Source of the DNA: a virus
Length of the DNA: 28,978 nucleotides
Strand: one strand, 5' to 3'
UHGV virus genome: UHGV-0201389
Below are positions 3 to 24,506 of the stretch, piece by piece. The position numbers and the translations under genes were made by a program. A model generated the notes under the pieces. The model searched no databases, had not been told where the DNA came from, and was given only the letters and a program-made list of their open reading frames with translations. Positions within the stretch are counted from its first letter, which is position 1. Every line of letters begins with the position of its first letter.

Positions 3-1859
3 AAACACATTAGACCGCCAGAAAGGAAACTACCATCACAATGGGTGGAAGATAACATTGTATTAGTCGATGGTCCTCAAGCTGGTAGTAAAGTTAAATT
101 AACCAGCTTTCAAAAAGGTATGATTGATGCTCCTTTCCTTGAGCGTAAAATCAAATATGTGTTTATGACCAGTGCGCAGATCGGAAAAACTACCATCTTG
201 AACGGTATTATCTTTAATAAGATGGCAAACGATCCGGGAAACATGATCATCGGGCAAAGTACCACAAAAGAGATGCAACAATACCTAAGCGGTAAGATCC
301 GACCAGCTATTGAAGCATGTCCGGCACTAAGCGCGGTTGTTACAGATAAAAATGACCGAAATTCGGTTAATAACAATAACCAACTCCAGCTTAAATCAAA
401 TCACTTCCTCTATATGGTTTCTTTGACCAGTCCGTCAAACTTACGAGGAAAATCAGCAAGTTACGTACTTCTTGACGAGGTTTCAGGTGCTGCTATTGAT
501 GCGGATGAAGGGAACCCCGTAGCTCTGGCTGCTAACCGCGCAACCACTTTCGGGGATGAAGCAAGAATTATCGTTTCCAGTACCCCGACCACTAAGCTGG
601 GGATCATCAATCAGGAATGGCTATCCAGCGATCAGCGTAAATTCTTCGTTCCTTGTCCTCATTGTGGGAAACACCAGGTGATCGAATGGGAAAACGTTAA
701 GTTTGAGTGGGTTAACCGTGATGGTCGCAACCTACCTGATGTAGACAGCGCCCGTTATGTTTGTCCTCACTGCCAGACTGATTGGACAGAAGGGGATCGC
801 ATTAGGGCGGTAGCTGCTGGTGAATGGAGAGCTACCCGTGAAAGTGATGTAGCCGGATTCTGGATCAGTCGTCTGTATTCACCTTTTAGCTCTATCAAAT
901 CTTGTGTTTCTGACTTCGCTCAAGCATGGCAAACCTTTGATTTGCAAAGTTTTTATAATACAGTGCTCGGACTCGTGTACGATGATCAGGAAACGGCAGT
1001 AGAAGTAAACGAACTGGAAGAACTAAAAACAGATGTTTCTGTTGAAAATATCCCAGATGACGTTATTTTCTGTTGTTCGGGAGTGGATCAGCAATTGGAC
1101 AGATGCGAATCTACTTTGTTGGGTGTAGCTAAGAACAAAATTTATATCCTCGATCACCGGATCTTTAGAGATTATAACTGTGAGAGGTACGAATCACCTG
1201 TTTGGGACCGATTAATCAACTTCCAGAAAAGCCAGTTTGTCACTGTATCCGGTCATCGTGTACCAATGCTGGCATGTTTCCTCGATACATCAAACGGTAA
1301 ATTCACACAAGCTGGCTACCGTATATGTTCCAAATGGAAAAATCTTCATGCCATTAAGGGCAGTTCATCTGGTAATGCTCCAATCATTCCGGTGAAGCCT
1401 ACCACCACGGGCGGTCATGAATTGCTTATGCTGGGCGTTAACGTTGGTAAAACTGCTGTTCGTGAGCTATTAACACGCAACTTGAAAGACAATCCTCATA
1501 TTGGCCTAGAAATATCAGAAACCGTTCCTGATGATTATCTCGATCAGCTTTTGAGTGAATCCATCAAGCGTACTGTTACTGGAACACGTTGGGTAAAAAA
1601 TCCAGGTACGACACGAAACGAGGCGCTCGACTGTCTGGTTTATAGCTACGCGGCATCCCGCTACGTTCTTTCAAAAATGTCATGGGATAAACTCATTGCA
1701 CTGAAAGAAAAGCTGAACCGCGAGAAGGAAGAACCCGTAGAAGCTCCTAAATCGCAATCTAACGAGCAAATCGAAGAAAGTAAGCCAATCACACGACCGC
1801 AACGTCAAAACATCGTGAGACGTCCAAATAGAGGCCGTGGCTGGGTAACATCGTTCTAA
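3..1859 (+). CDS. terL: Terminase large subunit, 5'-partial (frame is open to window start; listed start at 45 is GTG with no SD)
   Basis: P-loop-like SAQIGKTT and Walker B-like VLLDE near the N-terminus; Cys pairs CPHCGKH / CPHCQTDW; acidic C-terminal half; sits immediately upstream of the portal gene. No start codon or RBS between positions 3 and 45. Confidence 0.8.
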
Positions 1860-1864
1860 TAACT

Positions 1865-1895
1865 CGCCGTCCTTCGGGGCGGCTTACTCCTAAAT
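1865..1895 (+). terminator. Putative intrinsic terminator after terL
   Basis: GC stem GCCGTCC/GGGCGGC closing a TTCG tetraloop, followed by a U-rich stretch. Confidence 0.45.
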
Positions 1896-1932
1896 ATTGT
1901 TAATCCAAATAACAATTAAATAAGGGGTAATT

Positions 1933-2430
1933 ATGAGTTTAGAACTAATTCCCTTAGTAATTCGTAAAGGCGAAAAAATCACGCTGGCGAATGAAGAGGG
2001 TGTAACCATTCAGGTCGGAAATAGTAAAGCTATCGTTTATCAAGTCGATGATGCACCGGAAAATCACGAGATTAAAACATTAGACTTCCCAGAAGGAAAA
2101 ATGACCATCGTTATTACTCGTGACGATGAATTAATCTCTATGCAGGAATTAACTGTATTGCCAGTATTCCAGAAACAGACCAAGAAAGACTATCTACGCG
2201 AAACGATTACTTTAATCGAAAATACCATCTACGCACGCCTTGCAAATGATGAAAGTGCTTTAGCCGCAATGACCATAAAAGGGAACTCGTTCACATACGA
2301 ATCTATTTCGGTATTGCAGCAACTGAAAAAGGACTACGAAAAACAACTCGTAAAACTGATTCAGCAAGAACGCCGCAAAGCTGGCAATTACTCACCGATC
2401 ACACCGATTAAAGTACGCTTAACTCGATAA
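1933..2430 (+). CDS. Hypothetical protein (165 aa) between terminase and portal
   Basis: ORF preceded by the recurring TAAGGGGTAATTATG initiation motif; no recognisable catalytic motifs. Confidence 0.7.
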   Translation: MSLELIPLVIRKGEKITLANEEGVTIQVGNSKAIVYQVDDAPENHEIKTLDFPEGKMTIVITRDDELISMQELTVLPVFQKQTKKDYLRETITLIENTIYARLANDESALAAMTIKGNSFTYESISVLQQLKKDYEKQLVKLIQQERRKAGNYSPITPIKVRLTR

Positions 2431-2439
2431 GGATTTAAC

Positions 2440-3963
2440 ATGTTTAATTTTTTCAAACGCAAAAAAGATATACCCGTGAATCCGGTTAAGAAAATCGGTA
2501 TTCGCCAGCACCGCAAATTATTTGTAGATCGTAAAATCGAAGAATTCACTAAGGATTTACAAAAACGCTCAATGGGTCTACAGGAAAACGACCGATTAGA
2601 GGGCAGTATGGCGCGTCAGGTTATCGCTGGCAGCATTAACAGTGCAATCAAGGGATCTGCATCACGTCTATACAATCAAGGCCGTCACCTTGCTTTGCAT
2701 ACGTCTATCGGTGCTCGTTATTGCCAGCACGTAATTGATTCCGTGGTAGGCACTGGTTTACAGCCGCGCACCTTCGTTATGAAGGGTAATGAATTGGACG
2801 TTGAGACTAACACCGCTATTGAGAATGCTTTTTGGCGTTGGGCGCGTTCTCAGAAACGATTCTCACGCAACGGAAAAGTTAACTTCCTTGAATGCTTAAA
2901 GCTAATGGAAAAAGAGCGTGTGATGGGTGGTGATGCGTTTCTGGTACTCCATGAAGATGGTAAGGATCTGCAAGTATCCATTTACGGCGCGGATTATGTT
3001 GATTGGGCGGACCAGCGCGTTTTAGACAACGGTAATACTGTTTACGCTGGCATCGAATATGAAGATGAAAAACCCGTTGCATATTGGTTTAGACGTCGTG
3101 ACATGTTCACGCAATCTTTCAGCACCGACCGTTATCGTATTCCGGCTGAACGAGTATTTCACTACTTTATCCCTAGCACAGCCGAAGCATTACGCGGCGT
3201 TACTGATTATTTGCCAGTAATTAAAGATATTGCTCACATGGATAGTTTTAGAGAAACAACGATAATTTCTAAACGTGTGGCCGCAAGTAGCATGGGCTTC
3301 ATCACAAGCGACAAAGAAAGTCAAGACTCTTTTGATGTTGGTGAAGACGAGACGGAAAACTATCAACCACCGACAATGATCACCGACTTCGAACCGGGCG
3401 CTATCCACCAATTAGAACCGGGGCAAGATATTAAAACGGTACAATCAAATCAGGGCGGTGATGATTTCGATAAATTTAATGAGGCCATGCTAACGGCAAT
3501 TGCGATGGGTCTCTCCAGCTTTAAACAAGCCCTTACGGGAGATACAAGTTCAATTAACTACTCCAGCGCGAAATTCGGTCATAATATTGAATCCGCTCGC
3601 TTTAAGACGCATCAAGATCGCTTAATTGACACGGTCATCCTTCCGTTATTTCAAGCATTTCTTGAACACGCGGTGATTAACTCTAAAATTAATGTTCGTA
3701 TGACTCAGATCGAATCTATTTTAGATGCAACGACAATTATTAGACCGCGCGTTACGTCAATTGAACCCATCAAAGATATAAACGCGGAAGTTCTCCTGAT
3801 TGACAAGGGTTTAAAATCTAAATCTGCGGTTATTATGGAAATGGGCTACGATCCTGAACAGACATTTAAGCAAATTGAATCAGAGAGACACGCACTAAAT
3901 ACATGCGTCGTGAGTGAGGGTGAGACTGAAAAAGAAAAATTGCCTGATACTCAAAATGAATAA
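2440..3963 (+). CDS. Portal protein
   Basis: 507 aa ORF directly after terL and before the capsid gene; size, acidic C-terminus and gene order typical of portals; SD AAGGA upstream. Confidence 0.75.
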   Translation: MFNFFKRKKDIPVNPVKKIGIRQHRKLFVDRKIEEFTKDLQKRSMGLQENDRLEGSMARQVIAGSINSAIKGSASRLYNQGRHLALHTSIGARYCQHVIDSVVGTGLQPRTFVMKGNELDVETNTAIENAFWRWARSQKRFSRNGKVNFLECLKLMEKERVMGGDAFLVLHEDGKDLQVSIYGADYVDWADQRVLDNGNTVYAGIEYEDEKPVAYWFRRRDMFTQSFSTDRYRIPAERVFHYFIPSTAEALRGVTDYLPVIKDIAHMDSFRETTIISKRVAASSMGFITSDKESQDSFDVGEDETENYQPPTMITDFEPGAIHQLEPGQDIKTVQSNQGGDDFDKFNEAMLTAIAMGLSSFKQALTGDTSSINYSSAKFGHNIESARFKTHQDRLIDTVILPLFQAFLEHAVINSKINVRMTQIESILDATTIIRPRVTSIEPIKDINAEVLLIDKGLKSKSAVIMEMGYDPEQTFKQIESERHALNTCVVSEGETEKEKLPDTQNE

Positions 3964-3968
3964 CCAAC

Positions 3969-3995
3969 GGGGGCGCAATGCCCCCAATAATTTTC
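3969..3995 (+). terminator. Weak hairpin/terminator after portal
   Basis: GGGGGC-gcaat-GCCCCC hairpin followed by a short T run. Confidence 0.3.
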
Positions 3996-4005
3996 AAGGT
4001 GATCT

Positions 4006-6066
4006 ATGACAGCAAAAAAATTACGTCGTAGCGTTGCGGTAGATGCCCCTGATTTTATCGAAGAAAAAGACGAACGAATTATTGAATTGGCTTTCTCTAG
4101 CGAGGCTCCTTATACACGTTATTACATGAATCAGGACGGCGAGCAAGTCGAATTAAAAGAGATTCTCGTACACGATGAATCAGCGGTTGATCTATCCGTT
4201 TTAAACGAAACTAACGCAAGTCTTCTGTTTAATCACAATCTGGATCTTCATATCGGCAAGATTGTTCCTGGCTCCGCTCGTATCGATGAAGATCGTGTAG
4301 GCCGTTGTCTTGTTCAATTCTCCAAAGTAGGCCAACTGGCTAATGAATGCTTTGAGAAGGTAAAGGAATCCACATTATCACAGGTTAGCGTCGGTTATAA
4401 CGTTCTTGATGGTAAAGCCGATTTTAGCAAAGGGATCTATTACGTTACTCGCTGGCAACCATATGAAGTAAGCATTGTTACGTGTGCCGCAGATCCGTTT
4501 AATGCTGGTGTTGGACGCTCTCTAAATACAGACAACGAAATGATTGTTTTGGAGGGTGAACAAGTGGAAGACGAAATTAAAGAAGAAATTAAACCGGAAG
4601 ATGAAGAAAAACGTTCCGAAGAAGATAAAGAGGAACAGGAAAATGAAGAAATTGATTCCGATTCTGGAAATAGTGTTAACAGTGGCGAAGATGTGGAAAA
4701 CCCGCAAGAAGTAACGCCAGAAGAAAAAGAAAAACGTTCCGAAGATGAACCGGAAGAAGAAATTAAACCGGAAGAAACAGAAGAACTAAATAAAGATACA
4801 GACGAGAACGACGAAACGGTAGAAGAATCCGAGACAGTCGAAGAAGAAAAGATTGAAGACGAAGAAAAACCGTTTGAACGTTCTCGCGAAGATACCGCCG
4901 AAATTCGTGCTATCGGAAAACATCTAAATATTCCAGAAGCAACGATTGAAGCTGCAATTAAAGATAGTGCCGTGACTATTGAAAATTTTAAAGAAAAAGC
5001 ACGCGCACTAAATACTACCGAATCTAAAACTTTTGTTAAAGGAAAAATTACCATGACCGATACCATTAAAACTCTGGAATCTCGTTTCGATCTTAATAAA
5101 GCTGTACGTGCAATCGCAGAGGGTAAAGCACTGACTGGCGCAGAAGCTGAATATTCTCAGGAAGAAGCACGTAAAGCCGCAGCGCGTGGTCGTGCACAGC
5201 GTTCTAACTCCGTATTCATTCCGGCGTCCGCTCTGCGTGCTAGCCAGAACATGGAATCTCTGAAACCTGTAGTTGGTGAAGAAATCCGCCATGATTGCTT
5301 CGTTGATATGATCATGGAACGCTCGATTCTGGGTAAATTGGGTGTTCGTACCATTAACGCAACTGGTCCGGTATCTCTGCCGTCTCTGACTTCCAGCAAT
5401 CTGGAAAACTTCGGTTTTGTTGCAGAAGGTCAATCCGCTGGTGAAGGTACTATCAAGTTTGCAGCACAGCCGATGACTCTTAAGACATTCAATGGAATTG
5501 TTCCTGTAACTCGTCAGGCTGCTATCACTCTGCCTAACATCGGTGCTATCGTTGGTGAGCACATGCTGAAACACAGTGCTATCGCTCTGGAAAAAGCGAT
5601 CCTGTCCAATGCTGCTAACCCTAACGCTCGTGATGGCCTGACTAAGATCCTGACCGACGCTGGCAAAGTTAAACAGATTGATTGGACCTATGCCGAGTTC
5701 CTGAAACTGGTTGCTGAACTCACAGACAAAGGTTTTAACGAATCTGATCTGGCATTTGCTACTCGTGGTGTTGTTAAAGCTGAACTGGCAGCGCAACTCA
5801 AAGCAGCTAATGTTCCGGGCTTCCTGGTAGAAGGCGATAAACTGGTTAACCGTCCGATCTATGGCTCTGGTGTAGTTGCTCAGGATACCATGCTGTTTGG
5901 TGACTTTAGCTCCCTTGTTGTTGCAGACTTCGGATCGCTGGAACTTGATTGCGACGATACCACAGGTCGCGCGGCTGGCAACCTGTACTTCCGTGTATGG
6001 GCTGATCTGGATTGGGCTGTTATGGACCATAGCGCACTGACCGTAGTTCAGAAGAAAGGCGAATGA
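4006..6066 (+). CDS. Prohead protease - acidic scaffold-like linker - major capsid protein fusion (686 aa)
   Basis: N-terminal ~180 aa resemble HK97-type prohead protease; residues ~185-290 are an extremely Glu/Asp/Lys-rich low-complexity region; C-terminal ~350 aa look like an HK97-fold major capsid protein and use strong high-expression codon bias. No separate protease or scaffold gene between portal and capsid. Ends in TGA. Confidence 0.8.
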   Translation: MTAKKLRRSVAVDAPDFIEEKDERIIELAFSSEAPYTRYYMNQDGEQVELKEILVHDESAVDLSVLNETNASLLFNHNLDLHIGKIVPGSARIDEDRVGRCLVQFSKVGQLANECFEKVKESTLSQVSVGYNVLDGKADFSKGIYYVTRWQPYEVSIVTCAADPFNAGVGRSLNTDNEMIVLEGEQVEDEIKEEIKPEDEEKRSEEDKEEQENEEIDSDSGNSVNSGEDVENPQEVTPEEKEKRSEDEPEEEIKPEETEELNKDTDENDETVEESETVEEEKIEDEEKPFERSREDTAEIRAIGKHLNIPEATIEAAIKDSAVTIENFKEKARALNTTESKTFVKGKITMTDTIKTLESRFDLNKAVRAIAEGKALTGAEAEYSQEEARKAAARGRAQRSNSVFIPASALRASQNMESLKPVVGEEIRHDCFVDMIMERSILGKLGVRTINATGPVSLPSLTSSNLENFGFVAEGQSAGEGTIKFAAQPMTLKTFNGIVPVTRQAAITLPNIGAIVGEHMLKHSAIALEKAILSNAANPNARDGLTKILTDAGKVKQIDWTYAEFLKLVAELTDKGFNESDLAFATRGVVKAELAAQLKAANVPGFLVEGDKLVNRPIYGSGVVAQDTMLFGDFSSLVVADFGSLELDCDDTTGRAAGNLYFRVWADLDWAVMDHSALTVVQKKGE

Positions 6067-6201
6067 AATAACGTAGAACCTTCTGTACCTTCCCCCGATT
6101 TGGGGGAAGAAAATCTGATTCCACCACAGGAAGAAGAATCCCAGACGGTTAAGGCGAAAGCCACAGCTAAAAAGGTGGGTCGTCCACCGAAAGCAAAATA
6201 A
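6067..6201 (+). other. In-frame stop-free extension after capsid TGA (44 codons, Pro/Glu-rich then KAKATAKKVGRPPKAK), candidate readthrough product
   Basis: Codon-by-codon reading shows no stop in the capsid frame from 6067 until TAA at 6199-6201; no internal ATG or SD; ends just before a strong terminator. Confidence 0.45.
6148..6171 (+). repeat. 24-nt motif GTTAAGGCGAAAGCCACAGCTAAA (copy 1 of 2)
   Basis: 22/24 nt identical to 11770-11793; both copies sit in the same frame near the end of the post-TGA extensions of the capsid and tail tube genes. Confidence 0.8.
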
Positions 6202-6206
6202 TAATT

Positions 6207-6236
6207 AGCCCTGCCTAACGGTGGGGCTTTTTTGTA
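6207..6236 (+). terminator. Rho-independent terminator after capsid gene
   Basis: AGCCCTGCC-taac-GGTGGGGCT stem-loop followed by TTTTTTGTAT; near-identical to the terminator at 12586-12616. Confidence 0.8.
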
Positions 6237-6264
6237 TGTAAATACTCCATAAAAGGGGGTACTA

Positions 6265-6555
6265 ATGAAATTAACTGATAGCCAGATTCGCAGGGCTTTA
6301 AAATTTGCAGAAGAATTTCAGAAAATAGACGGGACAATCATTAAAGCACATCACGAATTTTCACATGTAGATACTCCTGATGGTGGCGTTACCGAAAGTG
6401 AATATCTTATTTGTGCTCGTGGTGATTTAAAATCCGGTGATATTGTCATTATCGAAGGTGTACGTAATAAAGTTGGTTACATCAAAGATGACAGATCCGG
6501 CCTTATTGAAGCCTATATTACTGTAGTAGGGGGTAAACATGGCAAGTATGAATAA
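6265..6555 (+). CDS. Small head/neck-associated protein (96 aa), function unknown
   Basis: ORF with strong SD (AAAGGGGG) between capsid and tail genes; position suggests a head completion or head-tail joining role. Confidence 0.6.
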   Translation: MKLTDSQIRRALKFAEEFQKIDGTIIKAHHEFSHVDTPDGGVTESEYLICARGDLKSGDIVIIEGVRNKVGYIKDDRSGLIEAYITVVGGKHGKYE

Positions 6556-6961
6556 TATGCCTCGATTAGTTCTTAAACGCGCTTTCATGGACATTATTAC
6601 CGACCAGCTAGGGTTAGAGCTAAATGCTGAACATACGAAGCTAGCGAGCGATACAGACGCTACCGTTTGGATCGTTGAAATGAATGAAACGTTTACCCCG
6701 ATCCGTGGAAGTGGTAATGGGCAATTATCATCACTGAATATTGAATTTCAGGTCTTTTCTAGTCGTGGTGAAACAGCCGTTCATAAGGCAGTTTATGAGT
6801 TAATTAAAATTGATGCAACTAACCCGCGATTAATCGAAACAGGTATTCGTATCATGGATATTAACCCTGTAGCAAGTAACACTAGCTGGGAAGATGATTC
6901 CAGCGATGGTTATGTAGTCGCAACACTAACACTAAAAATTGACTATCAAGCGCGTTTTTAA
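6539..6961 (+). CDS. Putative head-tail connector / tail terminator-like protein (140 aa)
   Basis: ORF overlapping the previous gene by 17 nt, SD GGGGG upstream; size and position typical of neck proteins. Function is positional inference only. Confidence 0.55.
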   Translation: MASMNNMPRLVLKRAFMDIITDQLGLELNAEHTKLASDTDATVWIVEMNETFTPIRGSGNGQLSSLNIEFQVFSSRGETAVHKAVYELIKIDATNPRLIETGIRIMDINPVASNTSWEDDSSDGYVVATLTLKIDYQARF

Positions 6962-6970
6962 GGGGTAATA

Positions 6971-7804
6971 ATGAATATTACACATGATAACTTAGATATT
7001 TTTACTGGAAGCCATGTAGAAGTAAGTATTTCTAACCAGCTAGACAATCAGGTCGACTTTTTCGATCCTAGCTTTAGTGGTATGGAGAACATCGCAGCCT
7101 TTCCTACGCTGACAGAATCAACCGAGATCGAGACTTACGAAGAGTATGATCATGATGCTACTGGTAAGCTGGCTGGCTATCGCAAACTTGAACCGACTAC
7201 GCTCACAGTAAACCGAGTTCTTGACGACGAACATCAAGCAATGTTGATGAAAGCCGTAGAGGATAAAACACCTTTGCGCTTTAGAATGTTCTATGTCGTG
7301 AACTCTGGCTATAGTGCTGCTAACACTGGTTACTATGTCATTTATGATGCTTATGTCACTAGCCATAAAACTCGTGGCGGTGATAACAAAGCTGTAACTA
7401 TGGAATTCAAACTAGAACCAGATGGCGGGATTCTTGCAAGGGGTATTGCAACCGAAGGCCGGATCTTACGTCAGGGTGATTTTGGTCTGGGCGCTGGTGT
7501 AAATCCTTTCACCGGACCTATTGATAGTGAATCTCTGACAGGAAACCGCTTCGTAACCTACAAAGGAACGGCTAGCACTAACCCTTATGGTGCTGATACA
7601 TCGTTAATTCATCTTCAAGCTAATGAGCATGGCGCATGGCAATTAACGTGTAATACTTCCGGTGCTCCACGTTTGCGGGTACGAAATATTCAGGACAACG
7701 GAAAATCGGAATGGATTAAAGTCTATACAACAAATGAGAAGCCAACGCCAGCCGAAATTAATGCGGTTGCTAAGACTGATAGAATCGACTTCGGGGAATA
7801 CTGA
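6971..7804 (+). CDS. Structural protein of unknown function (277 aa)
   Basis: ORF with TAAGGGGTAATAATG initiation motif; ends in TGA but with only 3 open codons downstream; C-terminus has a KPTPAEINAV motif resembling the N-terminus of the next gene. Confidence 0.65.
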   Translation: MNITHDNLDIFTGSHVEVSISNQLDNQVDFFDPSFSGMENIAAFPTLTESTEIETYEEYDHDATGKLAGYRKLEPTTLTVNRVLDDEHQAMLMKAVEDKTPLRFRMFYVVNSGYSAANTGYYVIYDAYVTSHKTRGGDNKAVTMEFKLEPDGGILARGIATEGRILRQGDFGLGAGVNPFTGPIDSESLTGNRFVTYKGTASTNPYGADTSLIHLQANEHGAWQLTCNTSGAPRLRVRNIQDNGKSEWIKVYTTNEKPTPAEINAVAKTDRIDFGEY

Positions 7805-7877: not shown

Positions 7878-10800
7878 ATGCAATCAATCCAATTTAAACG
7901 CACACAGACGGCTGGTAAAAAGCCAACGCCGGAACAATTACAGGTCGGTGAAATCGCTATTCAGATGGCAGACCATGTAATTTATACCAAAGATAAAAAT
8001 AACGCAGTAGTTCAAGTAAGTGTTTCTCCTGAAAGCCATAATGCTTTAAACACGAAAGTAGACAATAACAAGAAAACTACTGATTCTACTATCGCGGCAA
8101 ATAAAACCGAAGCTGCTAACGCTCTGGCTACCGCTAAATCTGAACTGAATAACACCATTACCACGAAAGATACAGCAACCAATAAGCGCATTGATGCTAC
8201 TAACACCACTGTTAGTAACTTAACCCAGACAGTTACGGCAAATAAAACCGACGCTGACAGCAAACATACCACTTTAACTAACACTGTTGCGGCAAACAAA
8301 TCAGCTATTGAAACTACCGTAGCGAATAACAAACGAGATGCGGACAATAAAATCTCAGCTTTAACCACTACGGTTAATGACAATAACACCGCGATCAATA
8401 GCCGTGTTGATGCCACCAACACCAATGTTAGCAATCTGACCAAAACCGTTACAGCTAACAAGTCTGATGCTGATTCTAAGATCTCCAGCTTAACGAGTAC
8501 CGTTGCGGCTAACAAATCAGCCATTGAAACTACGGTAGCGAACAATAAACGCGACGCTGATACGAAGATCACCAACTTAACCAACACTGTTAATAGCAAC
8601 CACACCGCCATTAACGCGAAGGTAGACAAAAACAAGACCGATGCAGATGCAGCGATTGCAGCCGCTAACCGTCGAATTGATGGTATTGAAGGTAGTGCCG
8701 ATGCTGCTTACATCAAGAAGAATACCAATACCTATCATCATGGCTATCTGTTAAGCAAGACTGCTAACTACTTTGATGATACCGGTGCTCGTAACCTTGA
8801 TTATTTTGGTGCGTTTCGTCCGAACAATGCCGAAGGGTGGGGTAACTTAATCCTTAACATTCCTCATTCTGGCGGTAAAGCACACGGTCGCGGCTTTGAG
8901 TTCCATTATGGGTCTAGCTCATCTCAGGTTAAAACCTATGGCTTTGATGCTAACGGTGCTAAAAGATTCAGCTATCGCATGTATCACGAAGGTGATAAAC
9001 CTACACCATCGGAATTGAACGTTTACAGCAAACAAGAAGTTGATCGTATGTTTGTTAAAAACGTTAAAATGTCGGTTCCTTCTGGTGATGCAACTCGTGG
9101 ATATTTTAAGATTGCAACCGCAATGATTCCGCAGCAAGGCAGAATGGCATTTATTCGCATCTATGGTGGTAACGGTTATAACGTTAATTCTTACGATCAA
9201 GTTGACTTTCTTGAAATTGTTATCCGTAGCGGCAACGGAAACCCTAAAGGAGTTAGTATTGCTGCATATCGTCGAAATGCTAAAAATATTCATCAAGTAT
9301 TTGCGGTTAACACTTCCGGTGATAACTACGATATCTACGTTAACTACGGTCGTTATACTGATAACGTTATTGTCGAATATGGTAAAACTAACGATGTTAC
9401 ACTGACGGTACATGACGTTCCTGAAATAACTCTCGTTAAGCCGTCCACTGGTGTTACTGATGGTAAAGTAATTACCATGTTTAACACAGAGAACAAAGCC
9501 GGAACTATTCGTTTTGATGATAATACACAGGGAACTTACGATATTATCAGTTTGTGTAATGATACTGGTGATGGTAAAAAATATCTTCGTCAGTTCCGTA
9601 GTAAATCAGGTCATACTATTTGGCATGAAACTGTTCAGGGTAGCGTGTACCGCCTAGCTACTGGCACTACTGACTCAAACGAAGTTCTTAAAATTACCGA
9701 CCGCACGCTGCAAACTGGTCGTGCTGTTCTTGATGGTGGTAATATTCGTTTAGAACGCCAGACAGGGAATAGTAACCTTGTTGAATATTGGGATCGTCGT
9801 AACGGTGCTAACGTTCGTCAATCATGGTTTGGTTTTGGTAATGCCGACACTAACGCATTCCAGATCTATAGTGATGCTGGTAAAAACAACTTTGCGTTAG
9901 AACAAAGCGGTCAGATCTCTCTTAATGTTGGTGCAACAAAAATTGTCCATACCAACGGGCAATATATTTCAACTAACGCTGATGCATATCGTATGATTTA
10001 CGGTAATTACGGTGCATTCTGGCGAAATGATGGTGTTAAAACCTATCTTCTGTCTACCGCCGAAAATGATAAATGGGGTAGCTGGACTGGAAACCGTCCA
10101 TTCATTTATGAATTTAGTTCCGGTAACGTTAATTTAGGTGGTGATTCCAATAAATCCGCATTGACCTTAGAAGGTGCAAGCAAAGCCGCTCGATTTGGTG
10201 GTCATGTTTATACTGGCGGTAACTTACATAATACTGGACAGCATATAACGATGGAAGCCGGACTTGCTGGACAATCCCGCGATTTTATTCGCTTTAACCA
10301 TTGGGGTGATAGCAGTAACGGTCGTGATAACGTCCTGTATGTGGAAGATAGCAAAGGACGTCATTTCAGCACCGAGCGTAATATGGCTACTGGTGGATTG
10401 AAAGCAAACTTCTTAGGAGACTTTGAAGTTGGTGGTAAATTGACATGGGGTAAAGGTACAGCACAATCCTCGTTTAACTGTCGTGTTTGGGGTAATGCTG
10501 ATCGTAAACAGGTTTTAGAGTGGGCTGATGAAAGCGGTTGGCATTTCTATAGCCAGCGTGCAGGTGGTCCAGGAACTACAGCGATTCAGTTTAGTGTAAA
10601 TGGACAAATCAACGCACAAAACTTGAACGTTTCTGGTAAGGTTACTACCCCGCAAATTAGCGCATTTGGTGTAAACGTTGCTAATGGATTAGGTGGCAAC
10701 TCAATTGTTTTGGGTGATAGTGATACTGGCTTTAAGCAAAACGGCGACGGTATTTTAGATGTATATGCTAACAATGTGGCAGTAATGCGTTTTACTTCCG

Positions 10801-11156
10801 GTGCAATCACCGCAAACAAAGCAGTAAACGTAACTGGTCGAGTTACACCAACTGATTACGGTAACTTTGACGGTCGTTATATCAAAAAGACGAAAGGTTG
10901 TACTAAAATCTGGTCCGGTACTCTCCCTGGTAATACCCAGACCGGAGGTTTACCACAAGATCTCCGCTTCCGTAATGTGTGGATTCTTGACGCCGCAGGA
11001 TTTAACCATTTTATCCGTTTTGCCAATGACGGGAACTATTACCTGGCTGGTAACGGTGGATGGATTAAAATCCAACTTCACTCTAGCGGTAAAATCTTTA
11101 AGAACATTCAAGATTCTAACTTCGTTCCGCGTGAAATCTGGGTAGAAAACGAATAA
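7878..11156 (+). CDS. Tail fibre protein (1092 aa) with conserved fibre N-terminal motif and internal tandem repeats
   Basis: N-terminus KRTQTAGKKPTPEQLQVGEIA resembles the attachment motif seen at the start of many phage tail fibres; ~72-aa Thr/Asn/Ala-rich tandem repeats; Gly/Asn/Tyr-rich C-terminal half. Confidence 0.8.
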   Translation: MQSIQFKRTQTAGKKPTPEQLQVGEIAIQMADHVIYTKDKNNAVVQVSVSPESHNALNTKVDNNKKTTDSTIAANKTEAANALATAKSELNNTITTKDTATNKRIDATNTTVSNLTQTVTANKTDADSKHTTLTNTVAANKSAIETTVANNKRDADNKISALTTTVNDNNTAINSRVDATNTNVSNLTKTVTANKSDADSKISSLTSTVAANKSAIETTVANNKRDADTKITNLTNTVNSNHTAINAKVDKNKTDADAAIAAANRRIDGIEGSADAAYIKKNTNTYHHGYLLSKTANYFDDTGARNLDYFGAFRPNNAEGWGNLILNIPHSGGKAHGRGFEFHYGSSSSQVKTYGFDANGAKRFSYRMYHEGDKPTPSELNVYSKQEVDRMFVKNVKMSVPSGDATRGYFKIATAMIPQQGRMAFIRIYGGNGYNVNSYDQVDFLEIVIRSGNGNPKGVSIAAYRRNAKNIHQVFAVNTSGDNYDIYVNYGRYTDNVIVEYGKTNDVTLTVHDVPEITLVKPSTGVTDGKVITMFNTENKAGTIRFDDNTQGTYDIISLCNDTGDGKKYLRQFRSKSGHTIWHETVQGSVYRLATGTTDSNEVLKITDRTLQTGRAVLDGGNIRLERQTGNSNLVEYWDRRNGANVRQSWFGFGNADTNAFQIYSDAGKNNFALEQSGQISLNVGATKIVHTNGQYISTNADAYRMIYGNYGAFWRNDGVKTYLLSTAENDKWGSWTGNRPFIYEFSSGNVNLGGDSNKSALTLEGASKAARFGGHVYTGGNLHNTGQHITMEAGLAGQSRDFIRFNHWGDSSNGRDNVLYVEDSKGRHFSTERNMATGGLKANFLGDFEVGGKLTWGKGTAQSSFNCRVWGNADRKQVLEWADESGWHFYSQRAGGPGTTAIQFSVNGQINAQNLNVSGKVTTPQISAFGVNVANGLGGNSIVLGDSDTGFKQNGDGILDVYANNVAVMRFTSGAITANKAVNVTGRVTPTDYGNFDGRYIKKTKGCTKIWSGTLPGNTQTGGLPQDLRFRNVWILDAAGFNHFIRFANDGNYYLAGNGGWIKIQLHSSGKIFKNIQDSNFVPREIWVENE
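8187..8618 (+). repeat. Two tandem ~216-nt (72-aa) repeat units inside the tail fibre gene, with a degenerate partial copy upstream
   Basis: RIDATNTTVSNLTQTVTANKTDADSK...AANKSAIETTVANNKRDAD recurs as RVDATNTNVSNLTKTVTANKSDADSK...AANKSAIETTVANNKRDAD; nucleotide copies differ mostly at synonymous positions. Confidence 0.8.
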
Positions 11157-11229: not shown

Positions 11230-11706
11230 ATGTCTCAACAATTCAAAGATATTTTTACTGGTGGTCTGGTAAGTCTGTTCTATCACGCCGATACCACTAA
11301 CACCGCTCTCGATCATGAAAGCTATGAAGAAATTAAAGAGTGTGCTGGTTTCCCTGAAACTGGTATCGAGCGCGGTACTGTAGAAGTTAAATCCTTCTCT
11401 TCTCAGTATAACCGCAAGCTGGTAGGTAAACTGAACGTTCCTGATCTGACTCTGACCGTTAATTATATTCCCGGGGATACCGTGCATGAGCGTCTTATTA
11501 AGGCTGCCGAAGATGGTACCCGTATTCAGATTAAGATTGAATACTATGTTGACGCAGCAAAACAGACTGGTATTCGCACCGCTTTCAACGGCTTTATTTC
11601 TAAAGTTGCTATGCAGGGCGGCGATGAAGAAGTGGTAACTAAAGAATTTACCTTTGCTGTTGATGGTGCTCCGCTGAAACAGGAAATCTTCAATACTGCC
11701 GCTTGA
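11230..11706 (+). CDS. Major tail tube protein (158 aa)
   Basis: TAAGGGGTAATTATATG initiation motif, strong high-expression codon bias, sits directly upstream of the chaperone pair and tape measure gene. Ends in TGA. Confidence 0.75.
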   Translation: MSQQFKDIFTGGLVSLFYHADTTNTALDHESYEEIKECAGFPETGIERGTVEVKSFSSQYNRKLVGKLNVPDLTLTVNYIPGDTVHERLIKAAEDGTRIQIKIEYYVDAAKQTGIRTAFNGFISKVAMQGGDEEVVTKEFTFAVDGAPLKQEIFNTAA

Positions 11707-22636: not shown

Positions 22637-22701
22637 CTGGCGCAAATTGACGATAGCGCCCGTGTCGCGCAGAGTACGAGAAATCAGAATTGAAAGTTGT
22701 T

Positions 22702-22857
22702 ATGGCGGCAGATGATGAGATTTTGCCACTTGACACAAAGATCGCTTATTATCAAATGGTAATGGATTTTGCTGGTCGTGCACTGGATATTGTTAAATCT
22801 CGTGGGTTTGCGATCAAGAATGCTATAGAATTGCGTATGTTGGAATCCGGTCGATAA
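22702..22857 (+). CDS. Small hypothetical protein (51 aa), uncertain
   Basis: Sub-60-aa ORF translated manually; weak RBS; lies between two terminators. Confidence 0.3.
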   Translation: MAADDEILPLDTKIAYYQMVMDFAGRALDIVKSRGFAIKNAIELRMLESGR

Positions 22858-22877
22858 ATATATGCAGGAGGAATTTT

Positions 22878-22964
22878 ATGAGTGAATGTATTTGTAGTGT
22901 ATGCAAACAGCCAGTAGAATTGGCGTTTGTGATTAAAGTAAACGACCATGTTGTTCACCCTTAA
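22878..22964 (+). CDS. Cys-containing micro-protein (28 aa, MSECICSVCKQPVELAFVIKVNDHVVHP), uncertain
   Basis: Consensus SD AGGAGG 7 nt upstream of the ATG; CxCxxC motif; directly upstream of a bidirectional terminator. Confidence 0.35.
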   Translation: MSECICSVCKQPVELAFVIKVNDHVVHP

Positions 22965-22979
22965 AATAACTAATTATCA

Positions 22980-23012
22980 AAAAGCCCCAACCGAAAGGAA
23001 GGGGCTTAATTT
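22980..23012. terminator. Bidirectional terminator at the strand switch
   Basis: AAGCCCC...GGGGCTT stem with internal CC-gaaa-GG, T runs on both strands; abuts the helicase stop codon. Confidence 0.75.
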
Positions 23013-24506
23013 TTATGCGAGCATTATACGTTTTTGAGTCCAGTCGAATTTATCGGATATATAACACTTTATTCTTTCAAGCGCATGACTAACAGCATAA
23101 TTCTTACGGGTAACTTTTCCATTCTTACCCACAATGCAAAGGTCGTCTATCAAATCCCATACTACCGCAATTGCTTTACTACCATGTTTCCTAAGAGCAC
23201 GTCCTATTGATTGCCGGACAATGGTTGATTCTTTAACCGGATGACCAAAGATGACATGGTGTAGATTCTTAATCGAAACACCAGTAGAGAAAACACCATA
23301 GGAGGCAACTACAATCAATCCTTTCTCATTTTCAGCCATTTTCTTTAAGGCATCGCGTTCGGCGGTGGTAATCTCACTGGAAACGTAATAAACCTTATCG
23401 TAAACGCGCTGTAATGCATTATAAAGCATTTTTCCATGCTTAGAGTACCGGAACATCAAAAATACGTTTTCTTGCTTTCTAGCGAGTTTTAAGGCCAATT
23501 CACAAGCCAGTTTATTCCTTGCTTTGTGACCATTGATGAATTTAATCTCTTCCTGATAATCTTTACCCCGCATTGCTTTACATTCTTCATCCTTGTACTT
23601 GAGGAAGAGAGCATTAATCTTAAGCTGGGTAACTTGTCCGTCATCCATCAATTGTTTTATTGCTACTATCTTCTGAATATCACCAAACAACCCGACATAT
23701 TGCATTAAATGGCATTTTGATTCTTTCGGGGAACCAGTCATACCGATTTTGAACTGGCAGTGATTCATTCCGTTGATGATGTTGGTGATATTCTTTGCAC
23801 TGGCACGATGTGATTCATCAACTATCAACATTCCATATTGTCGGAACCATTCAGGAGGCATCTTGCAAGCTGATTGCCATGTACTGACAGTGATTAACCT
23901 GTCTCCCGGATGTTTCCCGCTACCACTCATCATTGTATGGATTGCTTCATGAGGGAATAGCCTATAATCGACAAAATCATCCCTCATTTGAACCACCAGC
24001 GATGTAGTCGGGACAATGATTAGAATCTTTCCGGTGTAGTTCTCCAGATACCAACGAGACAGCATACAAGCAATCAATGACTTACCCGCACTGGTAGGAA
24101 GAACCAGCATTCTACGGCGATTATGGATACCCTGAAATACTGCCTCCCTTTGATACCAGTAAGGATTGATTTTATTGCTACCGGAATACACTTCTAAAGA
24201 GTCAATCCATGAATCAATCTGTTCTTTGGTTACATCTTCCTTCTCAAGCAATCTGGGGTCTACCCATACGCTATAGCCCATGTTTTTAGCGAAGATACCC
24301 AATGTTTTCAATAATCCGATTGGCAGGGTATTTTCATGCGTAAACAGTCTTATCTTTCCATCCCAGCCGGAATATTTGTAGCGGGGGCTAAATCTAGCCC
24401 CTTCAACCTCAAACGAGAAATAATCTCTTAATTCCATCCCAATGGAAGGAGAGCATTCAACCTTAACGAAACTGTAATCTTGAAAATGAATGTTAATATC
24501 TTGCAT
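23013..24506 (-). CDS. uvsW: UvsW-type SF2 DNA helicase (start at ATG 24506; the listed ORF extends to GTG 24515)
   Basis: Walker A LPTSAGKS, DExH-type motif II IVDESH, and an N-terminal domain (HFQDYSFVKVEC...LRDYFSF) characteristic of T4 UvsW-like helicases; ATG overlaps the stop of the upstream gene (TAATG). Confidence 0.85.
   Translation of the reverse strand: MQDINIHFQDYSFVKVECSPSIGMELRDYFSFEVEGARFSPRYKYSGWDGKIRLFTHENTLPIGLLKTLGIFAKNMGYSVWVDPRLLEKEDVTKEQIDSWIDSLEVYSGSNKINPYWYQREAVFQGIHNRRRMLVLPTSAGKSLIACMLSRWYLENYTGKILIIVPTTSLVVQMRDDFVDYRLFPHEAIHTMMSGSGKHPGDRLITVSTWQSACKMPPEWFRQYGMLIVDESHRASAKNITNIINGMNHCQFKIGMTGSPKESKCHLMQYVGLFGDIQKIVAIKQLMDDGQVTQLKINALFLKYKDEECKAMRGKDYQEEIKFINGHKARNKLACELALKLARKQENVFLMFRYSKHGKMLYNALQRVYDKVYYVSSEITTAERDALKKMAENEKGLIVVASYGVFSTGVSIKNLHHVIFGHPVKESTIVRQSIGRALRKHGSKAIAVVWDLIDDLCIVGKNGKVTRKNYAVSHALERIKCYISDKFDWTQKRIMLA

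Follow-up and report, generated by a model that had tools for sequence, protein, structure and literature searches.

In phage HK97, the prohead protease is targeted by its own C-terminal tail rather than by covalent attachment, and the delta (scaffolding) domain comprises 102 amino acids (aa). In lambda (C/Nu3), Mu (I/Z) and the herpesviruses (UL26/UL26.5), a minority of the chains carry the protease as an N-terminal extension, most chains arise from an internal in-frame start, and the C-terminal part shared by both forms is the scaffold; a single gene thus itself provides for the dose and the targeting of the protease. Genes that join a protease to the capsid protein itself have also been described. 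In the cryo-electron microscopy study of Lactococcus phage Nocturne116, a single open reading frame (ORF), ORF18, was described as beginning with a prohead protease, continuing with a putative scaffolding domain and ending with the major capsid protein (MCP), whose mature N-terminus was observed at the junction of the latter two, with a cut between R242 and S243 (PMC13595954), and the earlier genome paper on this phage cites the 'capsid polyprotein' of Pseudomonas phage PAJU2 (UniProt P85500) as a prior proposal of such a fusion (PMC8306868). In announcements of actinobacteriophage genomes, 'capsid and protease fusion' is a routine annotation. The structure paper on roseophage vB_DshS-R4C (R4C) makes no mention of a protease or of processing and numbers the MCP 1-268 (PMC10276861). 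Here, we analysed a gene of this fused type at positions 4006-6066 of UHGV virus genome UHGV-0201389, a stretch of 28,978 nucleotides (nt) that we call the window. We suggest that this fused-family head gene is read as nested, co-terminal products and that the capsid is matured by a tethered protease, which seems to us the best explanation overall and a fairly probable one.

The gene is an uninterrupted ORF on the + strand with an ATG start, 686 codons and a stop, and its full-length product has a mass of 75.6 kDa (Table 1). A preliminary description, made from the letters of the window alone, had proposed a single 686-aa ORF with a protease-like N-terminus, a hyper-acidic linker of about 100 residues and an HK97-fold-like capsid domain, and all of these parts were recovered. 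In Pfam searches, two domains scored above their gathering cut-offs: Peptidase_S78 (PF04586) at aa 59-162 (42.8 bits, cut-off 21; E 7.7e-11) and Phage_capsid (PF05065) at aa 429-682 (51 bits, cut-off 24.2; E 1.7e-13). The acidic tract between them, at aa ~182-293, is 112 aa long with a net charge of -41, and Asp and Glu account for 57 of 120 residues. The segmentation was taken from a full-length AlphaFold2 (AF2) model, in which aa 22-160 form a folded β-rich domain, aa 163-287 are disordered with a predicted local distance difference test score (pLDDT) of ~30, and aa 294-335 form three helices. A break at aa 336-349, helices at aa 350-410 and a second break at aa 413-428 then precede the HK97 fold at aa 429-686.

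When we searched the inside of the ORF for in-frame ATG, GTG or TTG codons with a Shine-Dalgarno (SD) duplex of -5 kcal/mol or stronger, only two sites were found, GTG-187 (-9.8 kcal/mol) and ATG-350 (-5.6 kcal/mol). Both lie in domain breaks of the AF2 model, and the mRNA is weakly structured at both (90th and 94th percentile), among the least structured places in the gene. Equivalent sites are present, despite differing local peptides, in the related loci L004 to L006, L007 to L009 and L010 and in Escherichia phage DCP80, and site 1 also in R4C, VP882 and phiHAP-1. In the clade that carries K-G-K-x-T-M at site 2, the codons AAA GGA AAA are identical in all six loci and the flanking codons drift; GGA makes up only 8-15% of the Gly codons in the genes of this clade. 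A promoter scan, which is weak evidence, found no sigma-70-like site on the + strand inside the ORF, and the idea that shorter products come from an internal promoter is thus unsupported.

Synonymous-codon nulls calculated for each site gave P values of 0.005-0.2, which are individually weak and prone to selection bias, and we therefore relied on a family-wide positional test with frame controls. This test used 58 non-redundant fused genes (clusters at 60% identity) anchored on the PAD motif at the end of the protease domain; the expected number of pairs of an SD and a start codon was computed from local SD and start-codon rates, and the +1 frame served as control. In-frame pairs peaked at codons +20 to +29 after PAD, where 19 were observed against about 3.5 expected, and GTG-187, 24 codons after PAD-D163, falls within this peak. 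Over the zone +15 to +49, 39 in-frame pairs were found against 12.6 expected, a threefold excess, while the rest of the gene showed 187 against 189 expected, and the +1 frame within the zone 11 against 15.5. ATG was the start codon in 34 of the 39 pairs in the zone, compared with 74 of 187 elsewhere. In total, 36 of the 58 clusters have a post-protease pair, and in all eight annotated genes the annotated start has a weaker SD than the internal one.

The second signal is codon usage. The preliminary description had noted a highly biased codon usage in the capsid domain, and the measured values agree: the capsid part has a frequency of optimal codons (Fop) of 0.74 and an effective number of codons (ENC) of 38, against 0.51-0.53 and 49.5-53.5 in the protease part, the large terminase gene (TerL) and the portal gene. 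If every ribosome read the whole ORF, uniform codon selection would be expected, and a step at the start site is what unequal translation predicts. The protease part was compared with the part downstream by amino-acid-stratified synonymous permutation; in every one of the seven homologues from enterobacterial hosts whose site follows the GxGR motif by 14-18 codons, Fop rose by 0.18-0.33 after the protease (P ≤ 0.0003). MQ-4, which is without any post-protease site, showed no Fop step, and ep3, whose nested site lies further downstream, showed a step of only +0.06. The maximum-likelihood change points lay within 14 codons of the predicted ATG in all eight genes, change point and ATG being at aa 336 and 350 in the window, 333 and 337 in L004, 343 and 345 in L007, 345 and 349 in L008, 354 and 348 in L009, 305 and 309 in L010, 188 and 180 in DCP80, and 220 and 216 in ep3.

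The start-site enrichment and the intragenic codon-bias steps are different sequence signals that both predict nested translation, and we consider it moderately probable that the gene yields nested, C-terminally identical products. In the proposed mechanism, a single mRNA between the hairpins at 3969-3985 and 6207-6228 would give three of them: a minor 75.6-kDa protease-bearing chain started at ATG-4006, a 54.9-kDa spacer-scaffold-capsid chain started at GTG-4564 (V187, with its strong GGAGG), and, as the most abundant form, a 36.1-kDa pre-capsid chain started at ATG-5053 (M350). All chains would co-assemble through their common HK97-fold domain into a T=7-type procapsid with the N-terminal parts pointing inward. 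Few capsid subunits would be full-length chains, and how strongly each start is used, relative to the others on the mRNA, would determine the dose and encapsidation of the protease. The protease would be packaged by its covalent link, with the acidic tract serving as a flexible polyanionic tether and not as a structured scaffold. Cleavage by the encapsidated, tethered proteases would take place within aa ~410-422 and probably at other places as well, the fragments would exit, a shell protein of ~28-30 kDa would stay, and DNA packaging and expansion would proceed as in HK97. A stronger form of the proposal, in which such three-in-one nested genes are general in the fused family and most capsid subunits come from ATG-350 (or GTG-187) without a protease, has in our view a chance only slightly better than even; since 36 of the 58 fused genes carry a post-protease pair, nesting would, if true, be the general operating mode of the family.

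The gene might instead give a true single polyprotein, in which every subunit is a 686-aa chain with its own protease and spacer, and the N-terminal part is removed by autoproteolysis. The paired SD and start motifs would then be non-functional relics of separate genes or by-products of Glu, Gly and Lys codons, and the codon-bias step would come from the mosaic ancestry of the modules. We regard this as rather unlikely. It is compatible with the continuous and conserved ORF and with how published relatives have been interpreted, as the Nocturne116 authors read their gene as a single precursor (PMC13595954), and several observations weigh against the proposed mechanism. First, ATG-350 has an SD of no more than moderate strength (AAGGA, -5.6 kcal/mol), and GTG, the codon at start 1, is a weaker initiator. 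Second, the Glu-rich coding sequence of the acidic region lifts the SD-like background (0.148 against 0.095 per codon). Third, 22 of the 58 clusters have no recognisable post-protease site, and such a site is thus evidently dispensable in the family; site 2, which occurs in no more than 8 of the 58 clusters, mostly enterobacterial, was dropped as a family-wide feature. Fourth, mosaic recombination breakpoints lie near aa 350, and module histories could be part of the cause of the codon-bias step; Fop moreover depends on the set of 'optimal' E. coli codons that was chosen, although ENC, which is independent of this set, steps likewise. Fifth, no protein-level report of shorter products, here or in relatives, was found in the literature, and the searchable literature, which is incomplete, held no usable report on internal initiation in fused genes, lambda Nu3-type nesting or PAJU2. 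Finally, the N-terminus of the R4C capsid structure (PDB 8GTA), from which the cleavage zone is partly placed, may show only where the ordered part of the chain begins instead of where the true cut lies.

The pattern of the sites nevertheless speaks for nested products and against a single polyprotein. The enrichment is confined to the reading frame, involves mostly ATG and exceeds threefold what the local rates predict, and the sites persist while the surrounding peptides differ between lineages. The change points fall at the sites in all eight genes, and the step is missing in MQ-4, where there is no post-protease site. The fusion is also ancient, with about 25% identity across phages of Proteobacteria, so that unselected codon bias or relic ribosome-binding sites should have decayed. 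In addition, 415 copies of a 47-kDa, largely disordered and polyanionic N-terminal part would crowd a T=7 procapsid; when we calculated the load, a 421-aa N-terminal part on all 415 subunits came to 19.6 MDa, or ~61% of the cavity (assuming a radius of 21 nm). Of the earlier picture of 'one polypeptide' with fully self-contained assembly, the continuous ORF is conserved, while the rest is doubtful, since the in-frame starts with SD and the codon-bias steps suggest protease-free products.

We then examined the protease domain. H77, S128 and E154 are strictly invariant among 61 family sequences of 24-40% identity, and hhalign against HK97 gp4 placed H77 on His65 and S128 on Ser114, the catalytic residues of gp4. 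The domain was modelled separately, since Foldseek with the full-length model gave capsid matches only, and the predicted fold of the domain alone matched T4 gp21 and herpesvirus assemblins. The HK97 proheadase equivalog profile TIGR01543 scored 37.1 bits, or 40.6 bits for the isolated domain, below its cut-off of 59. The N-terminal protease claim thus passed the PF04586 profile and stopped short of the equivalog, and on these profile scores the protease is of a divergent S78 sub-family and no equivalog of HK97 gp4. The TIGR01543 score of 37 against 59 bits and the low codon bias of the protease part could also be explained by a degenerate, inactive relic that serves as scaffold mass only, with maturation carried out by a host protease or another phage protease. 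We consider this very improbable, because the three residues are invariant at such low identity, the His and Ser fall on the catalytic residues of HK97 gp4, the Pfam S78 threshold is passed, the predicted fold resembles T4 gp21 and the assemblins, and Pfam and PHROG profile searches of the head module found no separate protease or scaffold gene.

Direct BLASTP of the window protein to HK97 gp5 was marginal (E 3e-4), and fold and profile evidence was therefore needed for the identity of the capsid domain. Foldseek with the AF2 model matched the R4C capsid protein 8GTA (E 8e-15) and HK97 gp5 chains (template modelling score up to 0.77), and these matches, together with PF05065, bear out the proposed HK97-fold domain. 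The virion chain deposited as 8GTA has 268 residues, which correspond to residues 362-629 of R4C gp6 (full length 629 aa). Its first residue aligns between P421 and V422 of the window protein, and it is offset by about 7 residues in the alignment relative to mature HK97 gp5. Because of this alignment, the gp5 offset, the AF2 break at aa 413-428 and an indel among homologues at 'RASQNMESLK', we place the cut at aa ~410-422. By homology, ~410-420 residues would be removed and a 28-30-kDa shell protein left. The removal of an N-terminal part, as expected in the preliminary description, is thus supported through homology to R4C only, and the part would be larger than the ~330 residues given there.

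The acidic tract had been put forward as a scaffold-like region. In the proteins P0002-P0004, which are otherwise ~96% identical to the window protein, 45-95 aa of the tract are lost in frame, and these deletions fall between imperfect direct DNA repeats that encode EEIKPE and EKRSE motifs. In the window, positions 4567-4877 of the tract are made of imperfect direct repeats, a 46-nt and a 28-nt family with 4-5 copies each, which suggests repeat-mediated expansion and contraction. Among 142 two-domain representatives, the inter-domain length has a median of 178 aa and a range of 131-244 aa, the 242 aa of the window being extreme, and a hyper-acidic stretch of at least 80 aa occurs in only 13. 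Since the tract is disordered, variable in length and rare among these representatives, it is a clade-specific, expandable spacer, and a role as conserved scaffold was ruled out. Better candidates for a scaffold are the helices at aa 294-335 and 350-410, which are conserved between protease and capsid. The EIRAIGKHLNI...FK motif of the first segment also occurs in the unfused capsid precursor of Faecalibacterium phage FP_Epona, and the second segment is likely delta-domain-like and removed at maturation. In NCBIfam, neither the middle region nor the capsid domain taken alone found a match. Within the second segment, a 57-nt island (window 5107-5163, aa 368-386) recurs at 88% identity in four capsid/protease genes of E. 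coli prophages (H64-H67) that otherwise have no nucleotide similarity; it could be a recombination linker just 3' of a mosaic joint at ~aa 350.

The fusion itself belongs to an already described and widespread family, of which the window is a further member. The window protein matched PHROG 617 (major head protein) over its full length (E 5.1e-67, aa 4-682 to profile positions 7-622 of 626), and it also matched PHROG 4523, which is named 'major head and protease protein'. Against NCBIfam NF045541 (scaf_prot_MCP2, 'prohead protease/major capsid protein fusion protein'), it scored 124.9 bits with a cut-off of 525, and only aa 21-384 were aligned to profile positions 3-298 of 634; it thus has the architecture of NF045541 but belongs to a different sub-family. 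Both Pfam domains are present in all 120 closest homologues. An exhaustive search of 1.84 billion representatives gave 1590 matches at E ≤ 1e-10, and both halves were matched in 142 of the best 150 representative clusters (50% identity). The ORF is continuous in 90 of 96 related loci with DNA, the fused gene is conserved in hundreds of E. coli and Salmonella prophages, and public databases already contain near-identical proteins (87-95% identity). The replacement of the usual separate genes, which the preliminary description had noted, is therefore no peculiarity of this element, since named database families exist and many phages share the fusion. An artefact, whether an assembly or sequencing error or a pseudogenising frameshift that joined two genes as a prophage decayed, is refuted by the conservation data, and we give it almost no credence: although the element is a prophage and one E. 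coli strain has an IS2 in this gene, the same continuous ORF recurs in hundreds of independent genomes and in isolated phages, and the capsid of the fused-gene relative R4C was solved from infectious virions. Two papers considered as precedents were set aside: a preprint on the cyclic oligonucleotide-based antiphage signalling system (CBASS), which covers protease-scaffold and not capsid fusions, and the paper on Vibrio phage XM1, whose MCP is unrelated and unfused.

Table 1. Features of the fused protease-capsid gene and its surroundings (window coordinates).
Feature	Position	Strand	Details or basis
Protease-spacer-scaffold-capsid precursor ORF	4006-6066	+	ORF call, Pfam, PHROG, NCBIfam
Terminator-like GC hairpin GGGGGC-GCAAT-GCCCCC, then AATAATTTT	3969-3985	+	Between portal stop and fused gene
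Weak SD AAGGTG (duplex -3.9 kcal/mol) and ATG-1 of the 686-aa product	3996-4008	+	
S78 (HK97-type) prohead serine protease domain, aa 22-171	4069-4518	+	Ends with PAD...GxGR motif (D163, R171)
Family-invariant residues H77, S128, E154	4234-4236, 4387-4389, 4465-4467	+	
Hyper-acidic, disordered, repeat-containing spacer, aa ~182-293	4549-4884	+	Length varies among close relatives
Candidate nested start 1: GGAGGG (4551-4556), 7-nt spacer, GTG-187 (4564-4566)	4551-4566	+	Predicted 500-aa, 54.9-kDa product
Conserved three-helix segment, aa 294-335, EIRAIGKHLNI...FK motif	4885-5010	+	AF2, FP_Epona comparison
Candidate nested start 2: AAGGA (5039-5043), 9-nt spacer, ATG-350 (5053-5055)	5039-5055	+	Predicted 337-aa, 36.1-kDa pre-capsid
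Helical segment, likely propeptide, aa 350-410	5053-5235	+	AF2; 8GTA alignment
Predicted maturation-cleavage zone, aa ~410-422, ...ALRASQNMESLKP/VVGEE... (slash, cut)	5233-5271	+	AF2 disorder, homologue indels, 8GTA start
Predicted mature HK97-fold major capsid protein, aa ~421-686, ~28-30 kDa	5266-6063	+	Pfam, 8GTA, Foldseek
Strong intrinsic-terminator-like hairpin and T-run	6207-6235	+	3' of fused gene
Tube-like, tail-fibre and tube-like genes	6971-7804, 7878-11156, 11230-11706		

Upstream of the fused gene, the window encodes a gpA-type large terminase (45-1859), an adaptor-like gene (1933-2430) and a lambda-family portal (2440-3963). The gap between the portal stop at 3963 and the fused ORF is 42 nt and contains only a terminator-like hairpin and the weak SD, which agrees with the earlier statement that separate genes find no room there. 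In E. coli ETEC1717 and OkiPb01713 (L005 902-1924, L006 901-1923), an extra 340-aa hypothetical gene lies between portal and fused gene, and this layout is thus not universal in the family. The hairpins at 3969-3985 and 6207-6235 are arranged around the fused gene just as the annotated putative terminators are around HK97 genes 4-5, and the first of them may attenuate read-through from the portal gene. Directly 3' of the fused gene, the Salmonella relatives carry a ~346-aa gene with DUF723 and CapR (L007 3195-4058, L008 3201-4085), where the window and its E. coli relatives have a 96-aa ORF; this place after the capsid terminator may be a hot spot, and the DUF723/CapR gene a moron or accessory gene.

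The window comes from an E. coli prophage of roughly 38 kb that is integrated in the chromosome. The element is a temperate siphophage resembling R4C and the Rhodobacter capsulatus gene transfer agent (RcGTA), and the ORF is its gene for head assembly. Related head modules were found in 55 of 5426 complete E. coli genomes and were chromosomal in every case. In strain RMDEC332, the element interrupts hicB and ends with a serine recombinase. The tail genes (tape measure, Dit, DUF2163 and a megatron-like tip protein) are of the RcGTA/R4C type. Two tail-tube-like paralogues, one of 277 aa with a C-terminal extension and one of 158 aa (both phrog_158, 'major tail protein'), flank a 1092-aa tail-fibre gene; it looks as if the tail-fibre cassette had been inserted into the tube gene or duplicated with it. 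Two stretches of the window, 8744-9693 and 22662-24506, are 75-79% identical at the nucleotide level to T-even/T4-like phages, one corresponding to the distal long-tail-fibre gp37 region and the other to a UvsW-like helicase/UvsY region, which points to recent exchange between the temperate siphophage lineage and virulent Straboviridae. The record of Escherichia phage DCP80 (PQ671644.1, L001), a 141-kb Straboviridae/Gaprivervirus entry, opens at 1734-7789 with genes for a terminase of the lambda type and a portal and with a fused protease-capsid gene, all labelled 'hypothetical protein'; its fused gene is 37% identical to that of the window, and the record could be a real hybrid or a chimeric assembly. 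In E. coli HCP5S3_I4 (NZ_CM149869.1 2468152-2471542, H57), an IS2 element splits the homologous fused gene, and this prophage copy is probably defective.

Fused genes of this kind are systematically under-annotated as plain 'major capsid protein': the Prokaryotic Genome Annotation Pipeline (PGAP) labels the fused ORF 'phage major capsid (family) protein', and even the numbering of the solved R4C structure (8GTA) treats the 268-residue mature chain as the gene product. For the sub-family of the window, the boundary of the mature capsid protein can be placed near residue 410-422. Nested translation, if true, would offer a testable answer to how a covalently fused protease is kept sub-stoichiometric; if confirmed, it would extend the logic of lambda C/Nu3 and UL26/UL26.5 to the capsid protein and change how such genes are annotated and engineered.

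Like Nocturne116 ORF18 and the PAJU2 'capsid polyprotein', the gene of the window carries the protease, a central putative scaffold and an HK97-fold MCP in one ORF. Nocturne116 differs in that ~242 residues are removed instead of ~410-420, no hyper-acidic tract is reported, and nested initiation is not discussed; the likeness is one of architecture. R4C gp6 (PDB 8GTA, PMC10276861) belongs to the same sequence family as the window protein (E 3.7e-79 with the family profile against PDB; E 4e-13 by phmmer with the window protein), and R4C shares the gene order of the window, namely TerL, adaptor, lambda-type portal, fused gene and RcGTA-like tail. At 4420-6309 of the R4C genome (MK882925.1, L003), 629 aa with an N-terminal S78 protease domain are encoded, compared with the published numbering of 1-268. 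Immediately past its protease domain, R4C gp6 has an in-frame start, ATG-189, preceded by a GGAGG SD, as at site 1 of the window; it differs in its ~25% identity, its short Pro/Ala-rich spacer, which is not hyper-acidic, and the lack of a Met at the position of site 2.

HK97 gp4 and gp5 share with the window the S78 protease family, the aligned catalytic His and Ser, the capsid fold, an N-terminal scaffold-like propeptide removed by the protease, and terminator-like hairpins before and after the gene pair; in HK97, however, the two genes lie 2 nt apart, whereas in the window they are fused with an intervening region of ~240 aa. Compared with systems of the lambda C/Nu3 type, the shared part in the window would include the capsid protein, and nesting is here inferred from sequence statistics only. 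FP_Epona has a homologous protease of 176 aa (~40% identity over aa 20-173), followed by a 530-aa scaffold and capsid protein with the same helical motif. Unlike in the window, these are unfused, and the TAG stop of the protease gene overlaps the GGAGG SD of the 530-aa gene. The MCP start lies ~25 residues after the GVGR motif, at a position equivalent to the post-protease sites of the fused genes, and FP_Epona is thus a picture of the separated state.

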